DNA of 64,000 nucleotides. It comes from Firmicutes bacterium CAG:345 (GTDB lineage: Bacteria; Bacillota_I; Bacilli_A; RFN20; CAG-288). Positions 171 to 30,074 of the stretch are shown in pieces. The translations under genes were made by a program, and so were the position numbers. The notes under the pieces are model-generated. The model was not told where the DNA came from and did not search any database. It saw nothing but the letters and a program-made list of their open reading frames with translations. The stretch's first letter is position 1. Every line of letters starts with the position of its first letter. Location of the stretch: assembly GCA_000433315.1 (NCBI GenBank), contig FR893375.1:10718-74717 (forward strand), in the 5' to 3' direction.

Positions 171-1817
171 ATGAAAAAGATTAATTTACTTTCAGCTTTA
201 TTCTTATGCACTATTCTTGCTTCTTGTGCTTCTGAAAACACTTCTAGTTCTTCCTCATATAGTAGTTCATCAACAATTAGTTCTTCCTCATCTAGTAGTT
301 CATCAACAATTAGTTCTTCATCTTTTGTAGTTAGCTCTGTTTCATCAAGTTCGACTATTTCATCAAGCAGCACATCAAGTTCTAGCATTTCAAATAGTAG
401 TACAAGTTCTTCATCTATTTCTTCTTCAAGTTCTTCATCTATTTCTAGTTCAACAAGCGTTCCAAGTTATGAAGGAAATATTCTTTCTTTAAATTCTAAA
501 AATTTTAATAGTGTTGATGCTTTAGTCCTAAATAATATAACTCCAAATACTCAATACGAATCTGAATTTACTTTTGCTAAAAATGGTTCTTATCTTTCAT
601 CAAAAAGAATTACTGAAATTGAAAAAATTGAAGTTTTAGTATACGGAACATACGATAATTTAAAAATGTATGCTTCTGAAAATGCTGATGAAGAAAAATT
701 AATTACTGCCACAAAAGAAGAAAAAACATCAGAAAATGAAGCTCAGAATAATGTTTTATATACTTATTCTTTTGATACTCCAACAGATGTCTTCTATTTA
801 ACTAACCCTTCTACTTATAATGTCCAAGTCTTTACAATTGATATTTATTATAAAGGACAAATAAATGATGCTGAGCCTGAACCAGTAGAAAAAGACATTA
901 CAATTTCTAGAGCTCTTGAAATCGGAAATGCATTGAGCTCAAGTCGTGGAACAACAGAAACCACTTATATTATCAATGGTGTTGTCACAAATATTTCCGG
1001 AAAAGAAGTTACAATTACTCAGGATGATTCCAGCATTATCGCCTATGTTCCAACACCTGTCGAGAACCTTTATATAGGTTATTCTGTAGCTTTAGAAGGT
1101 AAAATTCAAAATTATTATGGCAAAATAGAAATTGTTGAATTCACACTTTTAGATTATCTTGCTGCAACATATAATGTTGATTTACAAGAATTTGAAAACG
1201 GAATAGTTAATGTATCAAAATCTAGTGATATCAACTATGGTGAAGAAATTACTTTAACTGCTGTCCCTAACGAAGGATATAAAGTCCTATCTTTATTCAT
1301 CGATAACGAAAGACAAAATCTTGATGAAAACAATTCTATTTCTCTAATAATGACTCATAATATTTCAGTAAAAGCTGAATTTATTTCTAATGATGTAGTT
1401 ATCGAAGAAACTGTTACTTTAAAATATGTTTTTGCCGATTATCCTGCAGGAACACAATATGCCACTGAAACTCATAAACTTGATGAAAACACTTCTATAT
1501 CAACTGAAAAAGCTCACTTTACTTCTGAGCTTCGTCTTTATAACAGCTCAACAAATGATAGTGTTGCAACAATACATTCCGCTAAGCCTATTAAATCAAT
1601 TTATTTCAATGCTGGATATAGTGCTTCTGAATTATCAGTTTATGGTTCTACTGATGGAGAAACATTTGAACTTATTTCAGCATTAGTAACAACTTCAGCA
1701 TATAAAGTGCTTTCTCTTGAAAACATTGAAGAATCTTCCTACACATATATTAAGCTTGATGTCACTGGTTCAAAGCAAGTTAGAATTAAAGACTTCAGCA
1801 TTGTAGTTGCAAAATAA
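171..1817 (+). CDS. Surface lipoprotein. Signal peptide with lipobox LASC, a Ser-rich low-complexity linker, an OB-fold-like region (tRNA_anti/nuclease-associated type) and a Listeria-Bacteroides-repeat-like segment.
   Basis: N-terminus MKKINLLSALFLCTILASCAS (lipobox). About 100 aa of poly-Ser/Thr/Ile encoded by a tandem 33/30-nt repeat at 261..323. Motif GVVTNISGKEVTITQDDSSIIAYVP...GKIEIVEF resembles an OB-fold. GEEITLTAVPNEGYKVLSLFIDN resembles a Flg_new repeat. RBS aaaggag lies 6 nt upstream. Confidence 0.6.
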   Translation: MKKINLLSALFLCTILASCASENTSSSSSYSSSSTISSSSSSSSSTISSSSFVVSSVSSSSTISSSSTSSSSISNSSTSSSSISSSSSSSISSSTSVPSYEGNILSLNSKNFNSVDALVLNNITPNTQYESEFTFAKNGSYLSSKRITEIEKIEVLVYGTYDNLKMYASENADEEKLITATKEEKTSENEAQNNVLYTYSFDTPTDVFYLTNPSTYNVQVFTIDIYYKGQINDAEPEPVEKDITISRALEIGNALSSSRGTTETTYIINGVVTNISGKEVTITQDDSSIIAYVPTPVENLYIGYSVALEGKIQNYYGKIEIVEFTLLDYLAATYNVDLQEFENGIVNVSKSSDINYGEEITLTAVPNEGYKVLSLFIDNERQNLDENNSISLIMTHNISVKAEFISNDVVIEETVTLKYVFADYPAGTQYATETHKLDENTSISTEKAHFTSELRLYNSSTNDSVATIHSAKPIKSIYFNAGYSASELSVYGSTDGETFELISALVTTSAYKVLSLENIEESSYTYIKLDVTGSKQVRIKDFSIVVAK

Positions 1818-1871: not shown

Positions 1872-2984
1872 TTATTTAACTATTTCTAGTTTACCATCGA
1901 CAAGTCGTTTTGTACTTTCTTTATCAAATAAGATAATACTATTTCCAACAAAATCAATTGAAACTTCTTCATTAACTTTATAGTCGATAATACCGAAGAT
2001 AACCGAAGTTAAAATATCTTCTCCAATATCAACCTTGACTGTTGTTTCCATACCAGCAGGAAGAGTTGAATATACTTTAGCTTTTAAACCATCTTCACAG
2101 ATACGGATGAATTCTGGTCTTATTCCTATTACAACATCTTCACTTGGTAATTCAAATTCATTATTTGCTTCAAATCTAGCAACAACATTATGGAATTTAA
2201 CTTCATAAGTATTTCCTTCGATTTGTTTTGCCTTTGCTTGAATAAAATTAATAGCTGGATTACCAACAAAGTCAGCAACAAATAAATTATTAGGATTTGA
2301 ATATACATATAAAGGTGGATCATATTGTTGAAGCAATCCATTTTTCATCAAACAAACTTCAGTAGCAAGAGTCATGGCTTCAAGTTGATCATGTGTAACA
2401 TAAACAAATGTTGAATTAGTTGAAGAATGTAAACGTTTTAATTCCGTTCTCATCTCTAAACGCAATTTAGCATCTAAGTTCGATAAAGGTTCATCCATAA
2501 ATAAAACTTTTGGATTAGGTGCTAGTGTTCTAGCAATAGCAACACGTTGTTGTTGTCCACCTGATAATTGACTTGGATATCTATCAAGATAATCTTCAAT
2601 TTTTAACATTTTGACAAGTTCATCAACTCTTGCTTTAATTTGATCTTTACTCCATTTAAGATTTTCAAGGCCAAAAGCAATATTCTTATAAACTGTCATA
2701 TGTGGCCATAAAGCATAGTTTTGAAATAAGAAACCAACATTTCTTTTAGCAGGAGAAATATTGATACCCTTTTTCGAGTCAAATACTGTAACACCATCGA
2801 TTATAATTTCACCAGATGTTGGAGTTTCAAGACCAGCAATCATTCTAAGTGTGGTAGTTTTACCACAACCTGATGGTCCTAAAAGGGTAACAAATCCACG
2901 ATCTTTGATAACCATATTAAGATTATCTACAGCAATGGAATCTCCCCATTTTTTTGTTATATTTTTTAAAATAATTTCAGGCAT
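1872..2984 (-). CDS. ABC transporter ATP-binding protein, MalK/UgpC/FbpC family with a C-terminal TOBE-like domain.
   Basis: Walker A GPSGCGKTT, signature LSGGQQQRVAIAR, Walker B LFMDEPLSNLD, H-loop VTHDQ. About 130 aa of C-terminal extension typical of MalK-type importers. Confidence 0.9.
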   Translation of the reverse strand: MPEIILKNITKKWGDSIAVDNLNMVIKDRGFVTLLGPSGCGKTTTLRMIAGLETPTSGEIIIDGVTVFDSKKGINISPAKRNVGFLFQNYALWPHMTVYKNIAFGLENLKWSKDQIKARVDELVKMLKIEDYLDRYPSQLSGGQQQRVAIARTLAPNPKVLFMDEPLSNLDAKLRLEMRTELKRLHSSTNSTFVYVTHDQLEAMTLATEVCLMKNGLLQQYDPPLYVYSNPNNLFVADFVGNPAINFIQAKAKQIEGNTYEVKFHNVVARFEANNEFELPSEDVVIGIRPEFIRICEDGLKAKVYSTLPAGMETTVKVDIGEDILTSVIFGIIDYKVNEEVSIDFVGNSIILFDKESTKRLVDGKLEIVK

Positions 2985-2987
2985 ATA

Positions 2988-4871
2988 TTAACCTCCTACA
3001 CCTTTATCAATAGAAGCTCCTGTTAATTTATTAACTACAACATTAATAATTAAAACCGAGAGAATGATAATTAAATTGATACCATTACTAATTTGTGTAC
3101 AATCATATTTTTCATAGTTTTGTAAAACTGCTGTTAAAATTGTACTACTACCTGTTAATAAAACGAATAAGGTCAACTCTCTCATACAGGAAACAAATGG
3201 TAGCAAATATCCTGAAATGAAACTTGATTTTTGAATAGGGAATAAAACCTTCACCATTCTCTTCCACCAAGGAACCCCAACAATTATTGCAGCTTCTTCG
3301 ATTTCATTCGATAATTGAAGCATAGCATTTGTTCCTGATTTAGAAGCAAAAGGTAAAAATTTAATAGAGCCAACAACAATGAGTAACACTAAAGAACCAT
3401 TTAAGAAACTTAATGCACTAGTATAAGAAAGAATCAAATATATAGTAGCGAATGACATTGCTGGAATTAAGTAAGGCAAGAAAGCTAAATTACTGACATA
3501 GTTAGATAATTTACTTCCACGTCTTTTAGCAACACCATATCCTACTAAAATACCAAACGTTCCAGCAATAAATGCACAGACAATAGAAATCCATAAAGAA
3601 TTTAAGAAAGCTTTCCAGATATCAGCATTTCTTAAAATACCAACAGATCCATAAATTGACTCATTAGTTTGTTCTGTTGTAATCCAATAATATAATGTAA
3701 ATGTTGAATAATCACCAGAAACTCTTAAGAATGATTCAAGAGCAAACGATACAAGAGGAATAATGGCAAAGAAAGCTGCATATAAAACAACAATTGTAGT
3801 AATAACTGGTTTTGCAACTTTTCCAAGTTTAACAAGAGAAATTTGTGAAGATTTACCTGTTACTGTGGTAAATGATCTTTTTGAATTAGTAATAAATTGA
3901 TTAAATAAGAGAATTACAATACTGAATAACATCAATACTGTAGCCATAACATAACCTTGACCTTTATATTGAGAACCATTAATAAGATTCTTCATTTGTA
4001 AAGAAAGAGTCATGAAACCACTTTTTGTTCCTAAAAATGCAGGAACTGTATAACTACTAATAGAACTAGCAAAAACTAATAATACTGTAGAAATAAGAGC
4101 AGGCATAACAATTGGTAAAGTGATTCTTCTTAAAATTTTGAATCGAGAAGCTTTCAAAATTGTAGCAGCCTCTTCTAAGTTTGCATCCATATTTCGCAAA
4201 ATACCACCAATTAAGATATAAGCAAATGGTGCATAGTGAATACCTAAACATATTGCACAAGGCCAGAATCCATAAACAAAGCTCGCTGGTACAGCAATAT
4301 GTGTCAGTGATTGGAGCATCCCTACTTGAGCTTGGGTGCCTTCCAAATAAACATTATTTTTGAAAAAGTTTTCCCAGAACATTGCAATCGACCAACTTGG
4401 CATAATATATGGGAAAACAAATACAGTTGAAATAAATTTTTTAGCTGGGAAATCACTTCTTGTAATAAGCCAAGCAATTCCTCCACCAACAAATAATGAA
4501 ATAAGACAAGCAACTAAAGCCATCAATACTGAATTTAATAAAGGCTTATAAAATACGTTGATAGAATAATAATAGTCTTCTTTTGATACTTCAGAAAATA
4601 TACCTATCCAATGGTCCATAGTTAGTGCACCAACAGCCTTATGAAGTCTTAATGATTCACCTTGATGGACAAGAATTGTATTATATAGAAGATATACTAA
4701 AGGAATAACAACAGTAATAGTTAATAATATTGCAAAAATAACTAATATAATATTTGATGGTTTAGAAAAATATGTTTTCAATGCATTTAATATTTTTCCA
4801 AACTTAGACAATTCATCTTTATTTTTGCCCTCAGGAGTCTTATTTTCATCTAAAGATAATGTTTCGTTCAT
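2988..4871 (-). CDS. ABC transporter permease, fused two-domain type (FbpB/ThiP/PotBC-like).
   Basis: 627 aa with about 12 predicted TM helices. Two copies of the binding-protein-dependent transport (EAA-loop) domain. Sits directly between the SBP and ATPase genes. Confidence 0.8.
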   Translation of the reverse strand: MNETLSLDENKTPEGKNKDELSKFGKILNALKTYFSKPSNIILVIFAILLTITVVIPLVYLLYNTILVHQGESLRLHKAVGALTMDHWIGIFSEVSKEDYYYSINVFYKPLLNSVLMALVACLISLFVGGGIAWLITRSDFPAKKFISTVFVFPYIMPSWSIAMFWENFFKNNVYLEGTQAQVGMLQSLTHIAVPASFVYGFWPCAICLGIHYAPFAYILIGGILRNMDANLEEAATILKASRFKILRRITLPIVMPALISTVLLVFASSISSYTVPAFLGTKSGFMTLSLQMKNLINGSQYKGQGYVMATVLMLFSIVILLFNQFITNSKRSFTTVTGKSSQISLVKLGKVAKPVITTIVVLYAAFFAIIPLVSFALESFLRVSGDYSTFTLYYWITTEQTNESIYGSVGILRNADIWKAFLNSLWISIVCAFIAGTFGILVGYGVAKRRGSKLSNYVSNLAFLPYLIPAMSFATIYLILSYTSALSFLNGSLVLLIVVGSIKFLPFASKSGTNAMLQLSNEIEEAAIIVGVPWWKRMVKVLFPIQKSSFISGYLLPFVSCMRELTLFVLLTGSSTILTAVLQNYEKYDCTQISNGINLIIILSVLIINVVVNKLTGASIDKGVGG

Positions 4872-4884
4872 TTTTACTCCTTAT

Positions 4885-4911
4885 CTTAGATAAAGTGGTG
4901 CAACTTTAAGC
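4885..4911. other. Intercistronic stem-loop between the SBP and permease genes. Possibly a partial terminator or mRNA stabiliser.
   Basis: agtggtgca-actttaagc-tgcaccact: perfect 9-bp stem. Confidence 0.4.
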
Positions 4912-4942
4912 TGCACCACTAAACTTCTTTTTTTAAAATTTA

Positions 4943-6163
4943 TTATTTGCCTTCGTATTGTTTGACAAATTTAGAAACATCGCCATAATTTTGAGCAACA
5001 ATTGTTGGATCTTCAACAACTAAGCGATCTTTCCACCATGCTAATTCTTTATCATTAGAAGCAATAGTAGTTGTGTGGTTAGTTGAATAATAACCAGCTT
5101 TTGATCCCCAAGCATTTTCAAATCCAGCCTTGGAAGTAATATAGCTTACTAATGCACAAGCTGCATAAGGATATTTAGCATTCGCAGCAACCATTGAATA
5201 CATCTTATAGCAAAATCCACCAAAACCATCAACTTTATTGTCACCTAATTCAATAGATGGGAAAGTCAAGTTAGCAACGTTTTCTTTTCCATAACCTTCT
5301 TCATCTTTTAAGTCTTTGATCTTATTATAATTGACTAAAGCAACTGTACCACCTTTAGCTTTTGCGGTATCTTTACAAGCAGTACCATCAGAGCTATGTG
5401 CTTGAGAATTCTTTAAGAATTCAGCAATCCATTTATAACCAATATTCTTATAATCTGATTCAGCAACATAATCTTTATGATAGAAATTCTTATATGCTAC
5501 TGTTAACTTATCAACCCATTCTTTAGAAGTTAACATAGTTAAGAAATTCATATTAACGTTTTCAGTAGTAGGAGTTTTAAATGATGGATTAGCAATATGT
5601 CCTTCATCGCTTGCAGAACCAGCAAGTTGCCAGACATTTGTTAAATAATTAGTTAATGAATGTTCTGTACCTTCACTATTGTAGTTATTGTACATGAAGA
5701 CTTTGTTCAAATAGACTGCTGCCATTGGAACAGTATCATCAGCTGCAACATTTTGTGCTGCTTCTTTTGGTACAAAGTTCAATAAATAATTTGGTGCAAG
5801 CATTTCACTTTGGAGCATATTACCATCTTGTAATAAGACCATATCTGCAATATAACTCTTACTTTGGAAAGCTGTTGACAAATGATTATATAAGTCGGCA
5901 TCACCTTCTTTAGTATTATTAACCTTAATACCTGTTTCTTCTGTAAAGGCTAAAATAGCTTTTTCTAATTGAGAAGAGTTTCCATAAACACTTACGGTAT
6001 TATTTCCTACTTCTTCTTTAGCCTTTGCAACAAGTTCAGCATAACTTAACTTTTCAGCATCTGAAATTGCCTCATTTTTGTTATTATTTCCAGAATTAGG
6101 AGAACAAGCTGCTAACATTGAACAAGCTGCCAATAAAACTGGAACAAATTTTTTCATTTTCAT
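4943..6163 (-). CDS. ABC transporter substrate-binding lipoprotein (family-1 SBP; Fe3+/thiamine/polyamine type, Mycoplasma p37-like).
   Basis: Lipoprotein signal MKMKKFVPVLLAACSMLAACSP. VSVYGNSSQLEKAILAFTEETGIKV resembles the N-terminus of family-1 SBPs. Heads an operon with a fused permease and a MalK-like ATPase. Confidence 0.65.
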   Translation of the reverse strand: MKMKKFVPVLLAACSMLAACSPNSGNNNKNEAISDAEKLSYAELVAKAKEEVGNNTVSVYGNSSQLEKAILAFTEETGIKVNNTKEGDADLYNHLSTAFQSKSYIADMVLLQDGNMLQSEMLAPNYLLNFVPKEAAQNVAADDTVPMAAVYLNKVFMYNNYNSEGTEHSLTNYLTNVWQLAGSASDEGHIANPSFKTPTTENVNMNFLTMLTSKEWVDKLTVAYKNFYHKDYVAESDYKNIGYKWIAEFLKNSQAHSSDGTACKDTAKAKGGTVALVNYNKIKDLKDEEGYGKENVANLTFPSIELGDNKVDGFGGFCYKMYSMVAANAKYPYAACALVSYITSKAGFENAWGSKAGYYSTNHTTTIASNDKELAWWKDRLVVEDPTIVAQNYGDVSKFVKQYEGK

Positions 6164-6346
6164 ATTTTCCTCCCGTGCTGAAACAAATGAATAATTTCAA
6201 CACACATATACTACAACCCTCTTTTTGTATTTTCAAGTAAGCGTTTACATTTTCTATACATTTTCTTTACAAAAAGTTTAAAAAGCGCTTAAAAAATCTT
6301 TATTTTGAATTTTTGAATGATATACTTATTAAGAGAGGCAATTAAA

Positions 6347-7213
6347 ATGAGTTTAGAAAATTTAAATAAAATGCTAAAAGATGCAGAAGATAATAACTAT
6401 GCCGTTCCCCAATTTAACGTTTGGAATTTAGAATGGATTTCTGCTGTTCTAGATAAATGCCAAGAACTAAAAACTCCTGTAATTCTTGGCGTATCACAAA
6501 ATGGTGCTAAATATATGGGTGGATTTTATGTCGTTACTCAAATGATAAAAGCATATATAAAGAAAAATAACATAACAATTCCTGTCGCAATTCATCTTGA
6601 CCACGCTTCTTCTTTTGAAGCATGTAAAGAAGCTATAGATGAAGGCTTTACTTCTGTAATGATAGATGCTTCAAGAAAACCTTTTGAAGAAAATTTAGAC
6701 ATTACCAAAAAAGTGGTTGAATATGCTCATCCAAGAAATGTTACAGTTGAAGCAGAACTTGGAAAGGTTGGAGGAAAGGAAGAAGAAGTAGTCGCTGAAT
6801 CTTTCTACGCTGATAAAAATGAATGCTTAAAGATGGTACAAGAAGCAAAAATTGATGCTCTTGCTCCTGCACTTGGATCTCAACATGGTTTTTATAAAGG
6901 CGAACCAAAATTAGGTTTAAAAGAAATGAAAGAAATACATGATTTGGTCAAATTACCTTTGGTTTTACATGGCGGTTCAGGAATTCCAGATGATCAAATT
7001 AAACAAACTATTAATTACGGAACGGTTAAAATTAACATCAATACAGATTGCCTTTGTGCTTGGGTTAAAATTGTTCATGAAATAATAAAAGAAAATCCAC
7101 AAGAAATAGATCCAAGAAAAATTATCGGACCTGGTAAAAAAGGAATACAAGATGTTATAGAAAATCGTTGTCTAGTTTTCGGATCCATTGGAAAGGCAAA
7201 TATCAATGGATAA
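6347..7213 (+). CDS. fba: Fructose-bisphosphate aldolase, class II.
   Basis: MSLENLNKMLKDAEDNNYAVPQFNVWNLEW..., HLDHASSFE, LHGGSG motifs. Start moved to the ATG at 6347 with RBS agagagg. Confidence 0.9.
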   Translation: MSLENLNKMLKDAEDNNYAVPQFNVWNLEWISAVLDKCQELKTPVILGVSQNGAKYMGGFYVVTQMIKAYIKKNNITIPVAIHLDHASSFEACKEAIDEGFTSVMIDASRKPFEENLDITKKVVEYAHPRNVTVEAELGKVGGKEEEVVAESFYADKNECLKMVQEAKIDALAPALGSQHGFYKGEPKLGLKEMKEIHDLVKLPLVLHGGSGIPDDQIKQTINYGTVKININTDCLCAWVKIVHEIIKENPQEIDPRKIIGPGKKGIQDVIENRCLVFGSIGKANING

Positions 7214-7946
7214 TCCTGGACTTTTCCAAGAAAGCAATAAAAAATATTCCATTACAAAAAGAATGATAATCTTCTTGATAGATGGAATATTAACTATCGG
7301 TACAATCTTCGCTTTATTTTTCGGAATATGCCAATTTATCATTCCTTCTTTAGCACATAATGAAATTTATAAATTAAATTCTTGGTATCAAGAAATTTGT
7401 ATTTCAGAAAATGTTCCTTATACAGAAGGAACATATGGAATTTACAAAGTTGATTCTAAAAAATATATATTGCAGCTTTCCGAACAAGGTATAGAAGAAG
7501 ATAAATTAATGGATACTTATCTTCAGAAAGTAGATGAGTTAGATGATAAATTAGCTAAAGTTGATGGTTACACTGAAACATATAGAAAATTCAATAGCAT
7601 TTATCTTTTGAATTTTATAAGTTGCATTTGCGTAAGTACTTTAATTTTTGAATTAATCATTCCTCTTTGCAATAAAAGACATAAAACTATTGGCATGATG
7701 ATTTTCAAATCAAATTTAGTAAATAGAGATAATATCGTTGCAAGTAACTCTAAAATTCTTTTGCGTTTCTTATTTATACAAATTATTGAATTAATTGCAG
7801 TATATCTTCTTATAAATTGGATAGGTATCCTTTTTGAAACATTAATTACTTTAGTATTAATATCTTTTACTGGAAATAGATATGCTTTGCACGATTTAGT
7901 TACAAATCTTCATGTTGAGGAACAATCAAAAAGCTTTACTGAATAA
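7206..7946 (+). CDS. RDD-family membrane protein with an inserted extracytoplasmic domain.
   Basis: KRMIIFLIDGILT (RDD signature), TM, a ~120-aa insert, TM segments, then KRHKTIGMMIFK. Same architecture as 58501..59637 and 59630..60670. Confidence 0.6.
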   Translation: MDNPGLFQESNKKYSITKRMIIFLIDGILTIGTIFALFFGICQFIIPSLAHNEIYKLNSWYQEICISENVPYTEGTYGIYKVDSKKYILQLSEQGIEEDKLMDTYLQKVDELDDKLAKVDGYTETYRKFNSIYLLNFISCICVSTLIFELIIPLCNKRHKTIGMMIFKSNLVNRDNIVASNSKILLRFLFIQIIELIAVYLLINWIGILFETLITLVLISFTGNRYALHDLVTNLHVEEQSKSFTE

Positions 7947-7995
7947 AGTGAACATATTTAATATGTTCACTTTTTTATAATAGAAAGAGAAAATT

Positions 7996-8649
7996 ATGAA
8001 CTATAATGAAGAATTTTTTACAAGATTACAAGAATTAATCAATCAATATAAAAATATTGATATTTCCGAAAATACTTTACTAATCGGAGCCTCACACTTT
8101 ACTTTTTGGAAGGAAAAGGCAGAAGAAGATCTTTCGCCTAACCTTAAAGCAATAAATTTTGGCATCGGAGGAACAACCGCTTTATTTTGGAAAATCAATA
8201 TGAATTTATTTAAAACTTTCAAATATCAACCCAAAAATATTTTATTGTCTATCGGTGGAAATGATATATCACAAAATTGTTCAAATGTAGAAACAATAAA
8301 TAGAATAATTTCTGTATTCAATCAAATCAAAGATATTTTTCCAAAAACTAATATGTACTTTGTTGGTATGTTTTCTAGCCCTTGTAAAATTAAAGATGGA
8401 AGAAATCAAAAGCAAAAAGAAGTATCTTTAGCAATTGATCAATATATTGAAACTGAAAAGGATAAAAATCTATTTTATATAGATACCCATAATTTTGTAT
8501 ATAAAAACAATAGTAATATTTTCGATAACGCTTATAATAAAAATATTGACTTAAATTTATTTTTAGATGATAATCTTCACCTTAATCAAAATGGATTCAA
8601 GCTTTTTGGTGAAACAATAAAAAAGTATTTTACTAGTAAATATCAATAA
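7996..8649 (+). CDS. SGNH/GDSL-family hydrolase, cytoplasmic.
   Basis: Blocks I LLIGASHFTFW, II GIGGTT, III SIGGNDIS, V DDNLHLNQNG. No signal peptide. Confidence 0.7.
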   Translation: MNYNEEFFTRLQELINQYKNIDISENTLLIGASHFTFWKEKAEEDLSPNLKAINFGIGGTTALFWKINMNLFKTFKYQPKNILLSIGGNDISQNCSNVETINRIISVFNQIKDIFPKTNMYFVGMFSSPCKIKDGRNQKQKEVSLAIDQYIETEKDKNLFYIDTHNFVYKNNSNIFDNAYNKNIDLNLFLDDNLHLNQNGFKLFGETIKKYFTSKYQ

Positions 8650-8758
8650 ACATTTTATTTATAAAAGTAAAAGTTGTTTCTATTGTTTAGCTATTTTATG
8701 CAATAAAAAAACTATTGTTATCAATATTAGTTATACTGAAAGCAATAGTTTTTATTTT

Positions 8759-11149
8759 TTATAAAGCTAAATTAGATTTATAGGTATCAATATCACTTTG
8801 AACTTTAGTAATTTCATCATTGAATGAAGTTTCATCGCCATCTTTTGTGACAGCCTTCATTTCAGACCAAGTCATTTCCATGCCTTCTGATCCAAATAAA
8901 GTTCCTATTTTTCCTGATTGAGCAGCAATATTTGTTCCAACGATTTTTAATTCATTATTTATATATAAATACGCCGAGGAATCTAAAACAACAAGTTTAA
9001 AACTAAACTCCATAGGTTCAACTAAATTATAAGAAGTAGAAGTACTTGGTGTATGATTGAAAGTCGCTGGATATAAAACTCCATTTTGCTTATTATCCCA
9101 TAATAAGAAACGAGTATCATAGCCTTCATTAAATCTAATTTCAATATGAGCATTAGGGTTATGTGCTGTAATAATCCATTTGCCTTCAAGAACAAAGTTT
9201 CTGTTTAAAATATTTCCATCACCATTGATAATAGTTGTAGAAGAACCTACTGCATCATATTTTTCTTTAGTTATATCTTCAATTTTACCTTGCCTTTTTG
9301 AATCAACAACGCATGTTGACTTATAAAAATCTATATCACCTTTTACTAATGAAATAGCATTATTATAAGCTCCTTCATCTGTCGCTTTATTAGCAACGGT
9401 TAAATTTTTCCAAGATACGGCAATGTTTTCACCACCAAATTTAATTGGAATTAAATCTGTTACATCTGGCAAATCAATAGCAACAGCTCTTAATGTTCCA
9501 TCGATATATAAATATGCATTATCATCAGTTACAACTAATTTAAACTTAACATTTAATTTTGAATCAAATTTATAACTGCTTGTTCCTCTGACATATCCAA
9601 AAGTAGCAACATCAAAAGAAGAAACATCACCACCATGGCCTCCCCAGAATAAAAATCTTTTTTCAGCATCTTCATTGAAGCAAATTTCAATATGAGGATT
9701 ATTGCCTAATTCTTTAATATCCCATCCTCCTTCAAGGACAAAGTTTCTAGAAAGAACAGTACCATTATCAAATAATGCTCTAGATTGGAGAACTGTATCT
9801 TCTAATGAAACATCAAAATCTTCTAATGATTTTTTAGTAGATTCTCCAATTTCACATCCAGCATTTAATAACTCATCAACAAAAATTTGATAATATTCAT
9901 TTTTAGGATGTGTATTATCTTTATACATCGATGGATCATGTCTATCAAATTTACTAGTGCTATCAACATATGTAATCCAATCTCTATCACCAGCCCATTT
10001 TTCCATTTCAGCATTAACAGCATCAACAATATCCCATTCACCATTATTTTGATAAGCTCTTTGAGTAATACCAAAATAATATAAATTTGTAGATGGATAA
10101 CTTTCATGGAATCTTCTTAATAATCTTTGAGTATTATTAATTGTTTGATTGATAGAAGCTTTATCATCATAGACATTATTTGTTCCTAAATGAATAGCAA
10201 TATTCTTTGGAGAATGATCGCCAAAAACTGTTTCATAATAAGTTTCCCAATCTTGTGTTGTTGTCGAAGATATGCCAAAAGCTTCTATATTATATTCAGG
10301 GAATTGTGTTGCATATCCTGTCCAGAAATTTCTGGCATCAAAATATGAATCTCCAACAAAATATGTTGTATCATCATTTTTATATTTTTTAGCAAGCTGC
10401 TTTGCATAACTTAAATAACCATTATCTTTATATTCGAAAGAATTTTCATCTACTTCATAGGCTATAACTTTAAACTTAGCACTATAGTGGGCACTTGTTG
10501 CTTCAACATCATACATACCTGCTTTTAATGGAGTAACAAGATGATTTTCTTCATCAATTTCTAAAGCTTTTGAATTATATTTATATGTCAGTTTTTCAAT
10601 ATGCTTTTCATTTTCATATTTTAAAACAAAATCTGATAATGGATAATTTCCTAAAGTTGCATAAACATTATTAATTGTCAATTTTCCATATTCTTGTAAT
10701 GTATTAACATAAAATTTAGTTTCAAAATGTATAGAAGATGCAGTAATCTCAACCATTTCGCCAACTTTTAAAACAGAAATAACATCATTTTCAATTTTTA
10801 TAGCTGTTTCATCATAAGTATAACTCAGTTTTTCACCCAAAGAACTATTTGAAAAAACAGGTTTAATTTCAAATGTATCATTTAAAGCTAAATCAATACT
10901 TTCAATACTAACTGTTCCATAATCAACATCGGTTGTTGAAGATGAACTTGAAGAAGATGATGAATTCAATGTGGAAGAACTAGTAGAAGAAGAACTTGAA
11001 GTAGAATTAGATGAAGTAGATGGTCTTACACTAGATGAACTTGTAGAAACACTTGAAGATGAACTACTAGATGAAGTAGTATTTCCACTACAAGATGCTA
11101 AAAGAGAAGGAAATAAAAGTAAACTTAATAATAAATATCTTTTTTTCAT
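8759..11149 (-). CDS. Large surface lipoprotein. Ser-rich linker, two Big_2-like Ig domains, an SGNH esterase domain and a tandem pair of about 130-aa lectin/jelly-roll-like C-terminal domains.
   Basis: MKKRYLLLSLLLFPSLLASCSG lipobox, then ~70 aa of poly-Ser. SGNH blocks YFVGDSYFD, HLGTNNV, DNTHP. Internal duplication NRNFVLEGGWDI...ICFNEDAEKRFLFWGG...KFKLVV..AYLYI versus NRNFVLEGKWII...IRFNEGYDTRFLLWDN...SFKLVV..AYLYI. Confidence 0.7.
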   Translation of the reverse strand: MKKRYLLLSLLLFPSLLASCSGNTTSSSSSSSSVSTSSSSVRPSTSSNSTSSSSSTSSSTLNSSSSSSSSSTTDVDYGTVSIESIDLALNDTFEIKPVFSNSSLGEKLSYTYDETAIKIENDVISVLKVGEMVEITASSIHFETKFYVNTLQEYGKLTINNVYATLGNYPLSDFVLKYENEKHIEKLTYKYNSKALEIDEENHLVTPLKAGMYDVEATSAHYSAKFKVIAYEVDENSFEYKDNGYLSYAKQLAKKYKNDDTTYFVGDSYFDARNFWTGYATQFPEYNIEAFGISSTTTQDWETYYETVFGDHSPKNIAIHLGTNNVYDDKASINQTINNTQRLLRRFHESYPSTNLYYFGITQRAYQNNGEWDIVDAVNAEMEKWAGDRDWITYVDSTSKFDRHDPSMYKDNTHPKNEYYQIFVDELLNAGCEIGESTKKSLEDFDVSLEDTVLQSRALFDNGTVLSRNFVLEGGWDIKELGNNPHIEICFNEDAEKRFLFWGGHGGDVSSFDVATFGYVRGTSSYKFDSKLNVKFKLVVTDDNAYLYIDGTLRAVAIDLPDVTDLIPIKFGGENIAVSWKNLTVANKATDEGAYNNAISLVKGDIDFYKSTCVVDSKRQGKIEDITKEKYDAVGSSTTIINGDGNILNRNFVLEGKWIITAHNPNAHIEIRFNEGYDTRFLLWDNKQNGVLYPATFNHTPSTSTSYNLVEPMEFSFKLVVLDSSAYLYINNELKIVGTNIAAQSGKIGTLFGSEGMEMTWSEMKAVTKDGDETSFNDEITKVQSDIDTYKSNLAL

Positions 11150-11300
11150 ATAACCTCAAAATAAGCGGTATAGCGCTTACACGTTGATTATACACGATTA
11201 CAATATTTATTTAATCATTAATTTTATTGATATTATATTTATAGTTTTTATCTCTATTTATTCAATTCATAATTTGATAGAATTTAAAAGAAGGTTAAAT

Positions 11301-11618
11301 ATGAAAACAAATAACATAGCAATGAAACAAATACTAATGGAAGCAGAAAAAGAAATCAATAAATTTTATAATTCTAAAAATTTTCTAGCTGCCATAATTA
11401 CTGGCGAAGAAAAAGAATTATCTTTTGATTTGTATTCCAAAGAAGATTTAAAAACTCAAAAACTTAAGAGCATCCAGTTAGTAAAAGAATACAAGCCGCT
11501 TTGGTTAATTTATGAAGAAGAAAATAACATATATATTTTTTTTAAAAATAGCAATGGAAATATTGAAAATATAACATTAGAAGATATTCCTCATTGCATA
11601 AATTATTCACGCATTTAA
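11301..11618 (+). CDS. Hypothetical protein (105 aa).
   Basis: ORF with a good RBS (aaaagaagg, 7 nt upstream of the ATG at 11301). The longer upstream extension in the ORF track has no RBS and reads through AT-rich promoter DNA. Confidence 0.5.
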   Translation: MKTNNIAMKQILMEAEKEINKFYNSKNFLAAIITGEEKELSFDLYSKEDLKTQKLKSIQLVKEYKPLWLIYEEENNIYIFFKNSNGNIENITLEDIPHCINYSRI

Positions 11619-11653
11619 AAAGATAGTTGGCAAGTTCCAACTATCTTTCTTTT

Positions 11654-25332: not shown

Positions 25333-27351
25333 TTGAAAGACAAAATACTAGCATTTTTTAAAGAAAAACAAAATGTACTTTGGCAAACATGTATTATTCT
25401 TTGCAGTTTTTATGTTGCCTTTAGTAATGATTCTTTTTCACTTAATCCATACTTTTTAATTCTTCTTTTATTATTGACTAAAAATGGTAATATCATTTTT
25501 ATAATATTTTCAATTAGCGCATTGATTCTCGGATCTTTTTTAAAATCAATAAATTATGGCATAGAACTGAGTCTTGCATGTTTTCTTTATTTAGTACTTT
25601 TATTCTTTCCAAGATATAAAAAATCTTATAGACAGCTATATATAACAAATACACTTTATTTCTTAGCATTCATATCTATATACTTGCTTAAGAAAAGTCC
25701 AACAAGTATTTTAATCAATTTTGGAATATCATATTTAATAGTTCAATTTTTTACTTTTTATTTAAATCAAAATGAAAAGAATAATCTATTTTATGGGACT
25801 TATATTTTTTTGCTGATAGGAATGTTTAAACAAAACTATTTAATTTTTAAAATATTATTCTATTTAGTAATTCTTTTAAATTTGAAAAACGAAAATTTAT
25901 CTGAACGTTTTAGTCTAATTTTCATAGAAAGTTTAATTTCATATTCATTTTATTTAGAATCTCAAGAAGAAATTCTCTCAATTATAATTTCATCGTTCTT
26001 TGCTTCGCTCATATTAAAACAAAAATTTAGAATTCCAATATTTGTAATTCTATATTCTATTCTTTTCAGTATTAAATATCCTGCAACTTTTTATAAAACT
26101 ACCAGCTTGTATCTTCCAATTATTTCTTTATGTATATACTATTTAATAGTAAAAAAAGAAGATATCATTGTAGTTCATTCTTCCGAAACTTCTCTTCTAG
26201 CAAAAATCAAAAATATCTCAGATTACCTCATGTTAATAGAAGAAAAACTACCAATACCTAATATTGAAATTCCAAATATAAAAGAAAATTTGAAATTAAA
26301 CCAATGCAAAAATTGTTCAAAAGCTCAAAATTGTACAAATGTTGCAAACTTATCTGAAGTTCTTCCATCATCCTTACAAAAAAATTTTAAAAAAGAAATT
26401 TTAACCTCCTGTCCAAATGGAAGTAAACTTATTTATCGTTATAAAGTTGTTAAAGACATGGTGAATCTTGAAATGAAAAATTCAATGATTGAAGAAGGAA
26501 AGCAAAGTGCAATTAAGACAATAATCAAACCATTAAAAGAACTTTGTGATCCAAAATTAATAACAATTGACAGCAATTATTTCAATAATATCTTCGGCGA
26601 TAATGTGATTACTTATTTTGCTGATAATTATTTAAAATCCACAAAAAAACTTACACCGCAACAAATAAATATAATAGAAAAAGCAGCAAATAAAACTATA
26701 AGTAAAGATACCTATTATTCCCTTTTATTTCAATCATATACATATAAATTTATTCCAAATAAAATTCATTTTACTTTTGATTATGCAACTAAAAGTTTTT
26801 CTAGACAAAATGGAGATAGTATAATTTTATTTCAAGACGAATCATATTTTGAATTTGCTCTTTTTGATGCCATGGGGCATTTTGAATCATCAGGAAAATA
26901 CTCATTATTCGCAAAAAGGCTTTTTGAAATAACAAGACATAAAGGCAATGATTTTTTCGAAAGAATAAAAGAATTAAACAAAATATTAATTTGTCAATCA
27001 ACAGTTGAAAATTATATCGCAGCAGATTTTTTTATCAAAGATCAAAATTCAAATAAATATTTATTATATAAATTTGGTTCAGCAAAAACTATTCTAAAAC
27101 ACAATCATAAAACAATAGAATTTACTAATTTTTTACCGCCACTTGGAATAATAAAAGATTTAAAAAACGAACCTTTTATTATCGAATTAGAGGATAAAGA
27201 TACTATTATATTTTCAACCGATGGAATTGAAAGTATAGAAAAAATAGACTTCAATAATAATCAAAGTTCTCTTCAAATATTAAATGATTATCTAAGTAAG
27301 CATCAATTAACTGATGATTCAACAATTTGCCAACTTATCTATAAAGCTTAA
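25333..27351 (+). CDS. spoIIE: Stage II sporulation protein E (SpoIIE)-like: polytopic membrane domain plus a C-terminal PP2C phosphatase domain.
   Basis: About 10 N-terminal TM helices. C-terminal FALFDAMGHFESSG and IIFSTDGIES match PP2C motifs. Located between divIC and tilS, as spoIIE is in Bacillus. Confidence 0.65.
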   Translation: MKDKILAFFKEKQNVLWQTCIILCSFYVAFSNDSFSLNPYFLILLLLLTKNGNIIFIIFSISALILGSFLKSINYGIELSLACFLYLVLLFFPRYKKSYRQLYITNTLYFLAFISIYLLKKSPTSILINFGISYLIVQFFTFYLNQNEKNNLFYGTYIFLLIGMFKQNYLIFKILFYLVILLNLKNENLSERFSLIFIESLISYSFYLESQEEILSIIISSFFASLILKQKFRIPIFVILYSILFSIKYPATFYKTTSLYLPIISLCIYYLIVKKEDIIVVHSSETSLLAKIKNISDYLMLIEEKLPIPNIEIPNIKENLKLNQCKNCSKAQNCTNVANLSEVLPSSLQKNFKKEILTSCPNGSKLIYRYKVVKDMVNLEMKNSMIEEGKQSAIKTIIKPLKELCDPKLITIDSNYFNNIFGDNVITYFADNYLKSTKKLTPQQINIIEKAANKTISKDTYYSLLFQSYTYKFIPNKIHFTFDYATKSFSRQNGDSIILFQDESYFEFALFDAMGHFESSGKYSLFAKRLFEITRHKGNDFFERIKELNKILICQSTVENYIAADFFIKDQNSNKYLLYKFGSAKTILKHNHKTIEFTNFLPPLGIIKDLKNEPFIIELEDKDTIIFSTDGIESIEKIDFNNNQSSLQILNDYLSKHQLTDDSTICQLIYKA

Positions 27352-27391: not shown

Positions 27392-28654
27392 ATGAAATTT
27401 AGTCGTTTACAAAAATCATTATCAAATCAAAATATTACTGCTGAAAATGAAATTCCTGTAGCTTTTTCTGGCGGTCCTGACTCTATTTTTTTAACAGAAG
27501 GATTAATCAAATTAGGGTATAAACCATTGCTTATATATATCAATTACCATGATTCTCCAACTGTATATATAGAAGAAAAAATAGTAAAGCAATACTCTCA
27601 AATAAATAAATTAAAACTCATAGAACATGAAGTTAATATACCTGATAATGTTAATTTTGAAGATGAAGCAAGAAAAATAAGATATAAATTTTTTAGTGAT
27701 GTAATTAAAATTCACCCTAACAAATTCATCTTAACAGCTCATCACAAAAACGACGATATTGAAACTATGATTTTACAGATAAATCGCAATAACATCGTAG
27801 ATTATTATGGACTTAAAGAAAAAAATGATATATTTGGAGTTACTGTAATAAGACCTATTTTAAATTACACAAAATTAGAAATAATCGAATATTTAACCAA
27901 AAATAACATTTCTTTTTATGATGATCCAACAAATTATGAACAAGAAAGACAAAGAAATATTCTTAGAGCAAATCTAAAAAATATCGATTATAATCATTAT
28001 AAGAATTTAAAAATTTCTTTAAATCAAAAAGTTAAAGAAGAAAAAAATAAAATCAAAAATATCGCAAATGGCAAATATATTTCCAAGAAAATATATAGCA
28101 CTCTTAATGATAATGAAAAAAAGCGTTTATTAAACTTTCTATTAAACTATAACTTAGGATATTCAAATAGCAATTTAATAAACATCTGTCTAATGAGATT
28201 AAAAAGTAATAAATCATTTGAAGAAAATTTAAAAAATAACATATCTTTATTTCAAGATAAAAATAATTTCTTTTTTGGAACCACAACAGATAAAAGAAAT
28301 TATTCCTACATAATTGAAAAAGAAGGCTATTATAAATTTAAAGAATTTGATATAGAAATAAAGCTTGGAAATTTCAACATCAAGGATTTTCCTATTTTTA
28401 TTGAAACTCCCAAACAAAAAGATATTATTGAAACTAATATAAAGCAAAATAATGTAATAAAATTTTTAAAACATCATAATGTTCCTAATTTTTTAATCAA
28501 TATTTTTCCAATAATAAAAAACAAAGATAAAAAAATAATTTATGTTCCTTTTTATGAAGATATCATTGAAAATAAAATAAAAATAAACTTGAAATTAATT
28601 ACATTAAAGGAGCACAAAGACGGAAAAGATGTTCTTGTATTTTATCCTTTTTAG
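27392..28654 (+). CDS. tilS: tRNA(Ile)-lysidine synthetase.
   Basis: PP-loop AFSGGPDSIFL, TAHHKNDDIET motif. Its 3' end overlaps the convergent cls gene by 56 bp. Confidence 0.8.
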   Translation: MKFSRLQKSLSNQNITAENEIPVAFSGGPDSIFLTEGLIKLGYKPLLIYINYHDSPTVYIEEKIVKQYSQINKLKLIEHEVNIPDNVNFEDEARKIRYKFFSDVIKIHPNKFILTAHHKNDDIETMILQINRNNIVDYYGLKEKNDIFGVTVIRPILNYTKLEIIEYLTKNNISFYDDPTNYEQERQRNILRANLKNIDYNHYKNLKISLNQKVKEEKNKIKNIANGKYISKKIYSTLNDNEKKRLLNFLLNYNLGYSNSNLINICLMRLKSNKSFEENLKNNISLFQDKNNFFFGTTTDKRNYSYIIEKEGYYKFKEFDIEIKLGNFNIKDFPIFIETPKQKDIIETNIKQNNVIKFLKHHNVPNFLINIFPIIKNKDKKIIYVPFYEDIIENKIKINLKLITLKEHKDGKDVLVFYPF

Positions 28655-30074
28655 GTCTATTTTTATATTCTAAATATGTAAGCTTATGCGATTTTGAAAT
28701 ATCATTAACTGCAATTTGAATAGTTTCTATTACTTCTTTTTTTCCAAACATTAAAGCTGTTACTTCAAAATTCATAGAAAATGAACGAACATCTAAATTT
28801 GCTGTTCCAATTGAAGCTACTCTGTCATCACAAACAACCATTTTAGAATGAATAAAACCAGGATATAAATAAACATTAATGCCTGCTTTTAATAATTCTT
28901 CCAAATAAGAATATGTAACATGATAAACAGTCTTTTTATCCGGAACACCAGGAATAACTAAATTGATATCAACTCCGCTTAATTTTGCAATAAGCAAGGC
29001 ATCAATAAAACTTTTATCAGGAATAAAATATGGTGTTTCTAAATAAATTGTATGATGAGCAATGCCTATCATTTTTAAATAACTTCTTTTAATTTCTTCT
29101 TTATCACTATCAGGACCAGAAGAAACAATTTGTATAGGATTAACATGTTCTGTTTTTTCCTTAATATTTTTTTCAAAATATTTTACCGCTTTAAAAATCT
29201 CACTTGAAGACATCTTATTTTTCTTCGAAATTTTATTATGATCAGAATAAGAAAAATCTTGTAAAAATCTAACTTGTAATAAAGAAACAGCTTCTCCAAC
29301 AATTCTAAGATGTGTATCTCTCCATGGCTTTATTTTCTTATCTTGAGACAGATAATCAACGCCTATATTCATTCCTCCAACATATCCTATTTTATTATCT
29401 ATAACAACAATTTTGCGATGATTACGATAGGCAAAATTATGATTAATCAAAGTAAAATGCGATGAGAAAAATGGTCTTACAATTCCACCAGCTTTAATAA
29501 ATTTTCTCAAAAAACTATAAGTGGTTTTAGGATTTCCTGAATCATCGAAAACTAAAATTACTTTTAGACCTTCTTTTGCTTTTTCAGTCATAGCATCTAA
29601 AAATCTTCTTCCTGCATCATCTTTTTTAAATAAATAATATAAAACAAAAACAGTCTCTTTAGCTTCTTTAATATCTTTTATTTGATCTTCATACATTTCA
29701 TGAGCATCAGTATAAATCTTTGTTTCATTATAAGTAGTACATTGCAAATATTCATTTGAATTTAATTTGATTAATTCTCTAATTTCTCTATCATCGCTCT
29801 CATAAAATTTTAAATTTCCATATGCAAATTCATGAGCAATCATATTATCAGCTATTTTTTTTCGTCTAGACCATCTTTTTCTATTAATTTTTGGTCCTTT
29901 TCCTACGAAGAAATAAATAATCCATGACAGTATTGGAAAAGCTAAAAATGCAAAAATCCATGGCAAAATAGATTTTGGGTCTTTTCTTTCCAAGAAGACT
30001 AAAAACAAAATCATGAAAAAATTAATTATAAATACAATCAATATAGTTAAATAAATAATTTCAGCAGTAGTCAT
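28599..30074 (-). CDS. cls: Cardiolipin synthase.
   Basis: Two N-terminal TMs. Two HKD motifs: HRKIVVIDNKIGYVGGMNIGVDY and HSKMVVCDDRVASIGTANLDVRS. Confidence 0.9.
   Translation of the reverse strand: MTTAEIIYLTILIVFIINFFMILFLVFLERKDPKSILPWIFAFLAFPILSWIIYFFVGKGPKINRKRWSRRKKIADNMIAHEFAYGNLKFYESDDREIRELIKLNSNEYLQCTTYNETKIYTDAHEMYEDQIKDIKEAKETVFVLYYLFKKDDAGRRFLDAMTEKAKEGLKVILVFDDSGNPKTTYSFLRKFIKAGGIVRPFFSSHFTLINHNFAYRNHRKIVVIDNKIGYVGGMNIGVDYLSQDKKIKPWRDTHLRIVGEAVSLLQVRFLQDFSYSDHNKISKKNKMSSSEIFKAVKYFEKNIKEKTEHVNPIQIVSSGPDSDKEEIKRSYLKMIGIAHHTIYLETPYFIPDKSFIDALLIAKLSGVDINLVIPGVPDKKTVYHVTYSYLEELLKAGINVYLYPGFIHSKMVVCDDRVASIGTANLDVRSFSMNFEVTALMFGKKEVIETIQIAVNDISKSHKLTYLEYKNRPKKDKIQEHLFRLCAPLM

Follow-up and report, generated by a model that had tools for sequence, protein, structure and literature searches.

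The 64,000-nucleotide stretch of DNA analysed here, referred to as the window, comes from Firmicutes bacterium CAG:345, an uncultured human-gut bacterium, and encodes a 796-residue lipoprotein on its reverse strand (open reading frame (ORF) 8759..11149). On balance, this protein is probably a cell-surface carbohydrate O-acyl (most likely O-acetyl) esterase with binding modules. It is divided into an N-terminal signal peptide and Ser/Thr-rich linker, two immunoglobulin (Ig)-like domains, an SGNH hydrolase domain with intact catalytic residues, and two copies of a C-terminal unit, called the C-module below, which is predicted to adopt a ConA/galectin-like fold (Table 1). The C-module is coupled almost exclusively to one SGNH clade, and more distant members of that clade, which lack the module, are encoded among genes for sugar uptake and glycan breakdown. 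We infer that the enzyme is an esterase and not a transferase, that the acyl group is acetyl, that the substrate is a glycan and that the modules have a binding role.

The ORF is a genuine gene, conserved in a species that has been sampled often, because its translation is an exact match to a deposited protein (CDD22931.1, "unknown", Firmicutes bacterium CAG:345), the gene order of the region is also present on a 60-kb Logan contig, and 13 full-length variants from other assemblies differ at five or fewer positions, none of them in the second C-module. On the basis of these variants, antigenic or diversifying variation of the lipoprotein within the species was rejected. The window has a G+C content of approximately 28% and reads cleanly in translation table 11. 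The lipoprotein and a convergent, signal-less SGNH protein of 217 residues had been proposed in an initial annotation made from the sequence alone, and both are borne out by the ORFs, the lipobox and Pfam.

Table 1. Features of the lipoprotein gene and its convergent neighbour, in window coordinates
Feature	Residues	Position	Strand	Basis or remarks
Shine-Dalgarno-like GAGG		11154..11157	-	4 nt upstream of the ATG at 11149; read from sequence
Lipoprotein signal peptide with lipobox L17-A18-S19-C20		11090..11149	-	Translation
Ser/Thr-rich flexible linker	21-72	10934..11089	-	Composition
Ig-like beta-sandwich domain 1 (predicted)	75-150	10700..10927	-	Internal repeat, model, Foldseek, family hidden Markov model (HMM) match
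Ig-like beta-sandwich domain 2 (predicted)	151-232	10454..10699	-	Internal repeat, model, Foldseek, family HMM; abuts SGNH domain directly
SGNH hydrolase domain	240-438	9836..10432	-	Pfam PF13472, motifs, family alignment, Foldseek, PDB profile matches
C-module copy 1	440-617	9299..9832	-	Carries N484, H486, R498, W502, Y546
C-module copy 2	622-796	8762..9286	-	Carries N666, H668, R680, W684, D685, Y727
Signal-less 217-residue SGNH hydrolase (S33, G58/59, N89, D192, H195)		7996..8649	+	Pfam, motifs
AT-rich hairpin with flanking A- and T-runs		8707..8753		Between the convergent genes; likely bidirectional terminator

Domains of the lipoprotein

The lipoprotein clearly belongs to the SGNH superfamily (Lipase_GDSL_2). 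The Pfam family of that name (PF13472) was matched over residues 264–422 with 53.1 bits, against a cut-off of 32.9, and is the sole Pfam family matched by the protein at E <= 0.1. The motifs follow the canonical block order, comprising G266-D267-S268, G292, G322-T-N324-N325 and D411-N-T-H414. These blocks are invariant across 12 aligned family members and both Ser and His are kept, so that the complete catalytic set of the initial annotation stands. Here, Ser268 is predicted to be the nucleophile, Gly292 and Asn324 to form the oxyanion hole, and Asp411 and His414 to act as the relay. In the AlphaFold model the domain has the SGNH fold: Foldseek, which was run against the PDB in all structure searches, gave template modelling (TM) scores of 0.72–0.77 to the SGNH-sized chains 7pzg, 6njc, 3p94 and 4iyj. 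A profile search of PDB sequences matched GDSL esterases and PAF-AH Ib. By profile and fold taken together, the nearest solved relatives are acetyl-specific esterases, including the Bacteroides GDSL proteins 4iyj, 3p94 and 4hf7, PAF-AH Ib, the acetyl esterase 5b5s and the sialate O-acetylesterase of Phocaeicola vulgatus.

The SGNH domain is immediately followed by the two C-modules, which are 38% identical over 176 residues (E 1e-34). These repeats had been noted before and are real, but the length first given to them, ~130 residues, is too short. The unit spans approximately 175 residues and can be subdivided into two regions: a beta-sandwich of ~140 residues (strands at positions 5–147 of a 175-residue model) and a two-helix hairpin (positions 152–169). 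Modelling of copy 2 on the basis of the module alignment gave a predicted local distance difference test (pLDDT) score of 90.8 and a predicted TM score (pTM) of 0.89, and the C-modules are confidently predicted to be ConA/galectin-like beta-sandwiches with a C-terminal helical hairpin. The closest folds in the PDB are the C-terminal domain of glycoside hydrolase (GH) family GH32, the carbohydrate-binding module (CBM) CBM66, galectins, the lectin domains of sialidases, PL7 and the C-terminal domains of GH43, which are overwhelmingly domains that bind or process glycans. Of these, galectins and CBM66 were found at E ~1e-5 with TM scores of 0.44–0.55. For the full-length model, tandem-repeat galectins and pairs of laminin LG domains scored best, in agreement with a region of two modules. 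The earlier description of the repeats as jelly-roll or carbohydrate-binding-like agrees with this predicted fold.

At the level of sequence the module stands apart. A Pfam scan of 11 module sequences found no lectin, CBM or ConA-like family and gave only scattered single-member matches to unrelated families, at E >= 0.03, while the module profile had no match at E <= 10 among all PDB sequences. The modelled fold is thus a classic glycan-recognition sandwich, and no described family can claim the module. Across 159 near-complete copies there is a conserved signature of six residues: N (88%), H (89%), R (96%), W (89%), D (85%) and Y (90%). All six are present in copy 2 of the lipoprotein and copy 1 is without the Asp only (Table 1). 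This polar and aromatic signature suggests a conserved ligand site.

The region preceding the catalytic domain would form a surface stalk. The N-terminus (MKKRYLLLSLLLFPSLL-ASC) is K/R-rich, then hydrophobic, and ends in the lipobox, which together are the positive N-terminus, hydrophobic core and [LVI][ASTVI][GAS]C motif of bacterial lipoproteins. Lipidation would take place on Cys20, at the N-terminus of the mature protein. A Cys-containing lipobox is present in all aligned homologues with a complete N-terminus, and an NCBIfam scan of the whole lipoprotein returned only a sub-threshold match to a lipoprotein signal region. The linker that follows was initially put at ~70 residues of poly-Ser. 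It is present, but measures 52 residues, of which 67% are Ser and 83% are Ser or Thr. Slippage-prone repeats and phase variation in this linker were considered and rejected, as its tandem-repeat DNA is weak (TRF scores of 31–45). A second lipoprotein of the window (171..1817, forward strand, 548 residues) has the lipobox ILASC and a Ser-rich linker of ~80 residues; its single Pfam match is to Flg_new_2/InlB B-repeat (E 4e-9) and it has no NCBIfam match. Stalks with a Ser-rich linker seem to be in general use among the surface proteins of CAG:345.

The linker leads into two units, residues ~75–150 and 151–232, which are 33% identical (E 5e-10). Both are beta-sandwiches in the AlphaFold model, where domain 1 is all-beta with block-mean pLDDT values of 84–95. 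The Foldseek targets of approximately the combined Ig length are the tandem Ig-like domains of Leptospira LigA (8gyr), assigned to this region by target length as the output carries no query ranges. We take the LigA domains to be of the Big_2 type. The two units had been called Big_2-like: the Ig-like fold is upheld by the model, but Pfam Big_2 (PF02368) had no match in the lipoprotein at E <= 0.1 and the resemblance is structural only. The units are thus predicted to be Ig-like and are only possible members of Big_2. Big_2 was detected in 3 of 23 giant proteins that bear the C-module.

Distribution of the C-module and genomic setting of the SGNH clade

The C-module is rare and is wedded to one kind of enzyme. 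In a profile search it was carried by 181 of 1.84 billion representative proteins, and domains were mapped in the 149 of these 181 that were listed. Among the matches listed, 83 of the 100 proteins of at least 500 residues have the same SGNH subfamily upstream of the module. The gap between the end of the SGNH domain and the next module has a median of 20 residues in these 83 representatives, so the near-absence of a linker is a family-wide feature. The same representatives have one to four module copies, and up to six are found at a locus in an Anaeroplasmataceae metagenome-assembled genome (MAG). The proteins that depart from the fusion are fragments or a small set of giants, a few of the latter also carrying a RicinB lectin, CBM96, a rhamnosidase domain or a dockerin. 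As the module is rare, variable in copy number, conserved at one site and tied to one catalytic clade, it appears to behave like a dedicated substrate-binding module, for which such a pattern is typical.

Two variations on this theme were seen. In the first, a module of ~180 residues, termed X, lies between the SGNH domain and the C-module in loci L002, L003, L004, L007, L008, L009 and L012 and in proteins P0003, P0011 and P0014; the X-bearing loci belong to Neoclostridium-like and other Clostridia MAGs. Profile comparison relates X distantly to the C-module (hhalign probability 89%, E 2.4e-6); X is without the conserved H/R/W signature and has NNPW in place of NN-x-H. In the second, two Anaeroplasmataceae MAGs have tandem pairs of paralogous Ig-SGNH-C genes (L024:5752-11854 and L031:5761-10235). 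The first gene of the pair has six C-modules in L024 and three in L031, which shows an expansion of module copy number in mollicute-like gut bacteria.

Relatives of the Ig-SGNH part were recovered in two ways. A word-indexed search gave 22 at the 90%-cluster level, and a pattern scan of one genome per species gave 79 loci, mostly from gut MAGs; none of the relatives recovered is named or characterised. The best relative in the pattern scan is 34% identical, and no closer relative or genome of the same species turned up there. The hosts are Clostridia (Christensenellaceae, Borkfalkia, Gallimonas and Neoclostridium) and reduced-genome Bacilli or "Mollicutes" (Onthovivens, Anaeroplasmataceae and CAG:449). 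The architecture of the clade can be written as [Ig]1-5 - SGNH - [X] - [C]0-6.

The neighbouring ORFs of these relatives were clustered and the cluster representatives were scanned. The top cluster of the first clustering was an artefact and was ignored: in high-GC relatives, ORFs running from stop to stop lie antisense to the query gene. Sugar-uptake or glycosidase genes lie within ~4 kb of relatives that lack the module at 33 of 44 loci, and it is partly because of this setting that the lipoprotein is read as a surface glycan esterase. The commonest layout is a same-strand operon encoding a substrate-binding protein (SBP), two permeases, a MalK-type ATPase and the Ig-SGNH protein, followed by a GH36 alpha-galactosidase and/or GH2. 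It is present in 12 loci (L039, L043, L049, L053, L057, L060, L062, L063, L071, L073, L074 and L077), where the ATPase is ~550 residues long and MalK-like with TOBE/OB domains, and GH36 and/or GH2 is found in most. At other module-less loci, GH43 adjoins the Ig-SGNH gene. Experiments on the substrate of the whole SGNH clade could well start from the 12-locus operon. Overall, the context of the relatives leans to dietary or plant-type glycans over sialic acid.

Module-bearing relatives have GH or CUT1 neighbours in 7 of 35 cases. Two Bacteroidales-labelled MAGs have the arrangement GH2-gene-GH43-GH43, three other relatives have GH43 and a further two have CUT1 components.

Comparison with known esterases and probable function

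Acetyl groups shield dietary fibres and host glycans from glycosidases, and esterases thus control substrate access in the gut. In the mechanism we propose, the lipoprotein would be exported and anchored through a lipid at Cys20. The 52-residue linker and the two Ig-like spacers would form a stalk that holds the remaining domains away from the membrane. The SGNH site would then remove ester substituents, using Ser268 as the nucleophile, Gly292 and Asn324 as the oxyanion hole and an Asp411-His414 relay. The polymeric glycan would be bound by the two ConA/galectin-like modules, which follow the catalytic domain almost without a linker. Having two of them would raise avidity, and copy 1 may contribute to the shape of the substrate cleft, like the CBM35 of RiCE17.

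RiCE17, of carbohydrate esterase (CE) family CE17 from Roseburia intestinalis (PDB 6HFZ/6HH9), is the most alike in domain order among multi-modular carbohydrate esterases, as both are gut Firmicute proteins in which a Lipase_GDSL_2-type SGNH domain is followed by a C-terminal beta-sandwich. RiCE17 is an acetyl-mannan esterase whose SGNH domain and C-terminal CBM35 form a substrate clamp, and its gene is accompanied by those for a sugar ABC transporter and glycosidases (PMC10154613, PMC9487903). This genomic context resembles that of the more distant relatives of the window protein. The likeness is, however, limited to domain order: 6HFZ and 6HH9 are absent from the PDB profile matches at E <= 1, and the top structural neighbours of the C-module are ConA-like domains with no CBM35 among them. 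The C-module also differs from its nearest structural neighbours. CBM66, the C-terminal sandwich of GH32 and the carbohydrate-recognition domains of galectins share the ConA-like fold with it at identities of 5–16%. Unlike CBM66 and galectins, the C-module has an extra two-helix hairpin, an N-x-H ... R-F-L-L-W-D ... Y signature and a distribution almost confined to one SGNH clade.

Similar fold but different build is also seen with the sialate esterases 7PZG and 6NJC and the PAF-AH Ib-like enzymes. These have the same SGNH sub-fold (TM 0.64–0.77) with the S-G-N-H blocks placed alike, block I being GNS in the P. vulgatus enzyme and GDS in the lipoprotein. They are 16–19% identical to it and are single-domain proteins of ~200–230 residues, without Ig or lectin-fold modules. 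Both groups are acetyl-specific (PMC10017367, PMC9487903). The initial annotation placed the lipoprotein with secreted glycan O-acetylesterases, such as those acting on sialate or peptidoglycan. The general type agrees with the SGNH-sized structural matches, which are short-chain acetyl esterases; the two specificities found no support.

A sialate O-acetylesterase would strip 9-O- and 7-O-acetyl groups from mucin sialic acids so that the bacterium's own or a neighbour's sialidases could act, with the modules binding sialoglycans. The fold is compatible with such an enzyme, and the P. vulgatus sialate O-acetylesterase gives TM scores of 0.75–0.77. Its identity to the lipoprotein is, however, only 17–19%, and the profile E-values to the EstA-type Bacteroides enzymes 7PZG and 6NJC (0.0018–0.003) are weaker than those of uncharacterised Bacteroides GDSL proteins and one PAF-AH Ib subunit. 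The hallmark of the SASA/NanS (CE6) enzymes is a block III without Asn (HQGE motif) and a Gln beside the catalytic Ser (PMC9487903); here, block III is the canonical GTNN and block I is GDSYF, without that Gln. In addition, no sialidase or Nan enzyme is found among the seven most recurrent named neighbour families of the 79 loci (which are the CUT1 sugar ABC transporter, GH43, GH36 and GH2), the context being of plant-type glycosidases instead, and no sialic-acid genes turned up among the window ORFs scanned. We regard sialate specificity as improbable.

One of the closest solved relatives, PAF-AH Ib, acts on phospholipids as an acetylhydrolase, which raises a different idea, namely that the protein scavenges lipids. 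As a surface lipase, lysophospholipase or short-chain esterase, it would supply a bacterium of reduced genome with fatty acids or other acyl groups cut from lipids of the host or the diet, much as the GDSL-type surface lipoproteins of mycoplasmas might. The Pfam label "GDSL-like lipase/acylhydrolase", the low-GC genome (~28%) and the several Ser-linker lipoproteins of the window fit this idea. Fusion to one to six lectin-fold modules would be unexpected for a lipase, as would the glycoside hydrolases and sugar transporters in the operons of relatives, and no lipid-metabolism genes recur among the neighbours. Lipid scavenging is therefore unlikely.

Extracytoplasmic SGNH domains with a beta-sandwich glycan-binding module are also known from enzymes that modify the cell's own envelope, such as Ape1 (SGNH and CBM35) and AlgX (SGNH and CBM) (PMC9487903). 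By analogy, the lipoprotein could be an Ape1-like O-acetylesterase or an AlgX/PatB/OatA-C-like O-acetyltransferase acting on peptidoglycan, teichoic acid or capsule, with the modules binding the polymer. Consistent with this, an appended or inserted beta-sandwich serves such work in other bacteria (PMC9487903), and the window gene and most module-bearing relatives stand alone among housekeeping genes. However, the module of Ape1 is inserted inside the SGNH domain and those of the lipoprotein are C-terminal. AlgX has a circularly permuted H-S-G-N order, as in PatB1-type enzymes, and an MBOAT partner (PMC9487903), whereas the order here is the canonical S-G-N-H, and no MBOAT or AT3 acyl-donor partner is among the identified genes neighbouring the lipoprotein (Fba, an RDD protein, an SPFH protein and RsmB). 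Moreover, the more distant relatives clearly lie in catabolic operons. No peptidoglycan genes were found among ten further large window ORFs scanned, which is uninformative. A role in the bacterium's own envelope thus has a low probability, similar to that of the sialate enzyme. By the tests run, the lipoprotein is not assigned to the SASA/CE6, CE17 or AlgX/PatB1 families, and its sequence is without the architecture of Ape1.

The surface glycan esterase that we favour has to be weighed against several observations of its own. First, 28 of the 35 module-bearing relatives are without GH or CUT1 neighbours, so the argument from context rests mainly on the more distant, module-less relatives, which are 30–42% identical in the best aligned Ig-SGNH segments. 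Second, the window gene is itself surrounded by housekeeping genes (Fba, the RDD protein, the SPFH protein, RsmB and RlmN) rather than a glycan-utilisation locus, and the nearby ABC transporter is of the fused-permease PhnU2/Fbp-like type, not CUT1. Third, PAF-AH, a lipid-acting enzyme, is among the closest SGNH structures. Finally, the full-length model has a pTM of 0.59, so that its inter-domain geometry is uncertain and the clamp is a hypothetical arrangement.

A bolder proposal may be offered tentatively. The C-unit could be a new carbohydrate-binding module family, with its site formed by N-x-H, R-F-L-L-W-D and Y, that has co-evolved and forms a substrate clamp with an unclassified SGNH clade. 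The two would jointly make a new carbohydrate-esterase family of uncultured gut Firmicutes, including reduced-genome Bacilli like CAG:345, that removes acyl groups, on the surface of the cell, from one particular glycan of dietary or host origin. We consider this possible but rather doubtful as a whole. Three features are new here: a rare ConA-like module that is undescribed and bears a signature of its own, the almost exclusive association of this module with an SGNH clade that is still unclassified, and its use in a stalked lipoprotein by a gut bacterium of reduced genome. The multi-modular carbohydrate esterase design is already familiar and this is not a new kind of system.

One characterised member would annotate the whole SGNH clade, which was found in genomes of 79 gut-associated species, mainly Clostridia and reduced-genome Bacilli. 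The catalogue of carbohydrate-active enzymes could gain a new family of esterases and one of binding modules from it, and it would open a functional route into a prevalent but uncultured human-gut bacterium, all of whose surface proteins carry the label "unknown". No current concept is overturned: the result is of use for annotation and offers a candidate new CBM/CE family, unsurprising to a specialist. The literature found on CAG-345 consists only of Mendelian-randomisation association papers.

The convergent neighbour and the rest of the window

The 217-residue neighbour is an exact match to CDD22930.1 ("uncharacterized protein BN617_00640", Firmicutes bacterium CAG:345). Pfam matched PF13472 (E 2.8e-11, 44.7 bits) and PF00657 (E 3.9e-9), and the motifs are G31-A32-S33-H34, G56-I-G-G59, G87-G-N89-D90 and D192-x-x-H195. 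The protein had been called an SGNH paralogue of the lipoprotein. It is a genuine SGNH hydrolase, but is only 25% identical to the SGNH domain of the lipoprotein (E 3e-12) and has GAS, not GDS, in block I, the motifs being otherwise complete. Its best PDB sequence matches are the P. vulgatus/B. vulgatus sialate esterases 7pzg and 6njc (E 4-5e-6). The N-terminus is hydrophilic with no signal-like stretch, and the protein is predicted to be a separate cytoplasmic SGNH esterase.

The 109-bp spacer between the two genes has a minimum free energy of -20.5 kcal/mol (z = -2.8 vs shuffles). Its hairpin was found by folding and fails the GC-rich consensus of the terminator scan; it is a likely bidirectional terminator. 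As the genes are convergent and separated by this terminator-like hairpin, they are separate transcription units. In addition, tblastn against 80 loci found the neighbour adjoining the lipoprotein gene only in the same-species contig, and a word-indexed search detected no homologues of the neighbour outside its own species cluster and fragments.

These results bear on the initial suggestion that the two genes form one system. In such a two-step scheme, the lipoprotein would partly deacylate a polymer and the cytoplasmic enzyme would finish the imported oligosaccharides. Two SGNH genes do lie next to one another here, and pairs of extracellular and intracellular esterases are known in glycan utilisation (PMC10154613). 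Gene orientation, the hairpin, the pairing confined to one species and the lack of detectable homologues all argue against it, as does the fact that no sugar transporter is adjacent. The suggestion is therefore not supported, and a two-step system is considered very unlikely.

Further lipoprotein-type SGNH genes lie beside Ig-SGNH-C genes in Candidatus Onthovivens (L022:2281-3231, 5899-8235 and 8264-9211) and in Firmicutes bacterium CAG:449 (L036:3-485). These are not orthologues of the 217-residue neighbour.

Elsewhere in the window, an ABC importer (1872..6163, reverse strand) is made up of a lipoprotein SBP (406 residues, weak SBP_bac_8 match), a fused double permease of 627 residues whose best match is of the PhnU2 type, and a UgpC/PotA/MalK-like ATPase of 370 residues. 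It differs from the CUT1 sugar type that adjoins relatives of the esterase, and as its fused permease is of the PhnU2/Fbp type, it was rejected as a sugar importer and as a glycan-uptake context for the lipoprotein. A promoter scan gave 28 matches vs 28.1 in shuffles and no promoter is claimed.

The window has two RDD-family membrane proteins, at 7188..7946 and 59630..60670 (both forward). The first, with a TTG start, shares 26 nt with the end of the aldolase gene; on the Logan contig it was called with a shorter length (246 residues), and translation probably begins further downstream. A small ORF (11184..11618, forward) runs divergently to the lipoprotein gene and has a length of 144 residues from a TTG, or 105 residues on the Logan contig; its N-terminus is hydrophobic and it has no credible family match. 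It is followed by a GC-containing, terminator-like hairpin at 11619-11648. Two further genes, for a 672-residue protein with a C-terminal SpoIIE/PP2C phosphatase domain (25333..27351, forward) and for a cardiolipin-synthase-like phospholipase D-type protein (28599..30074, reverse), are membrane-biology genes in a reduced genome.

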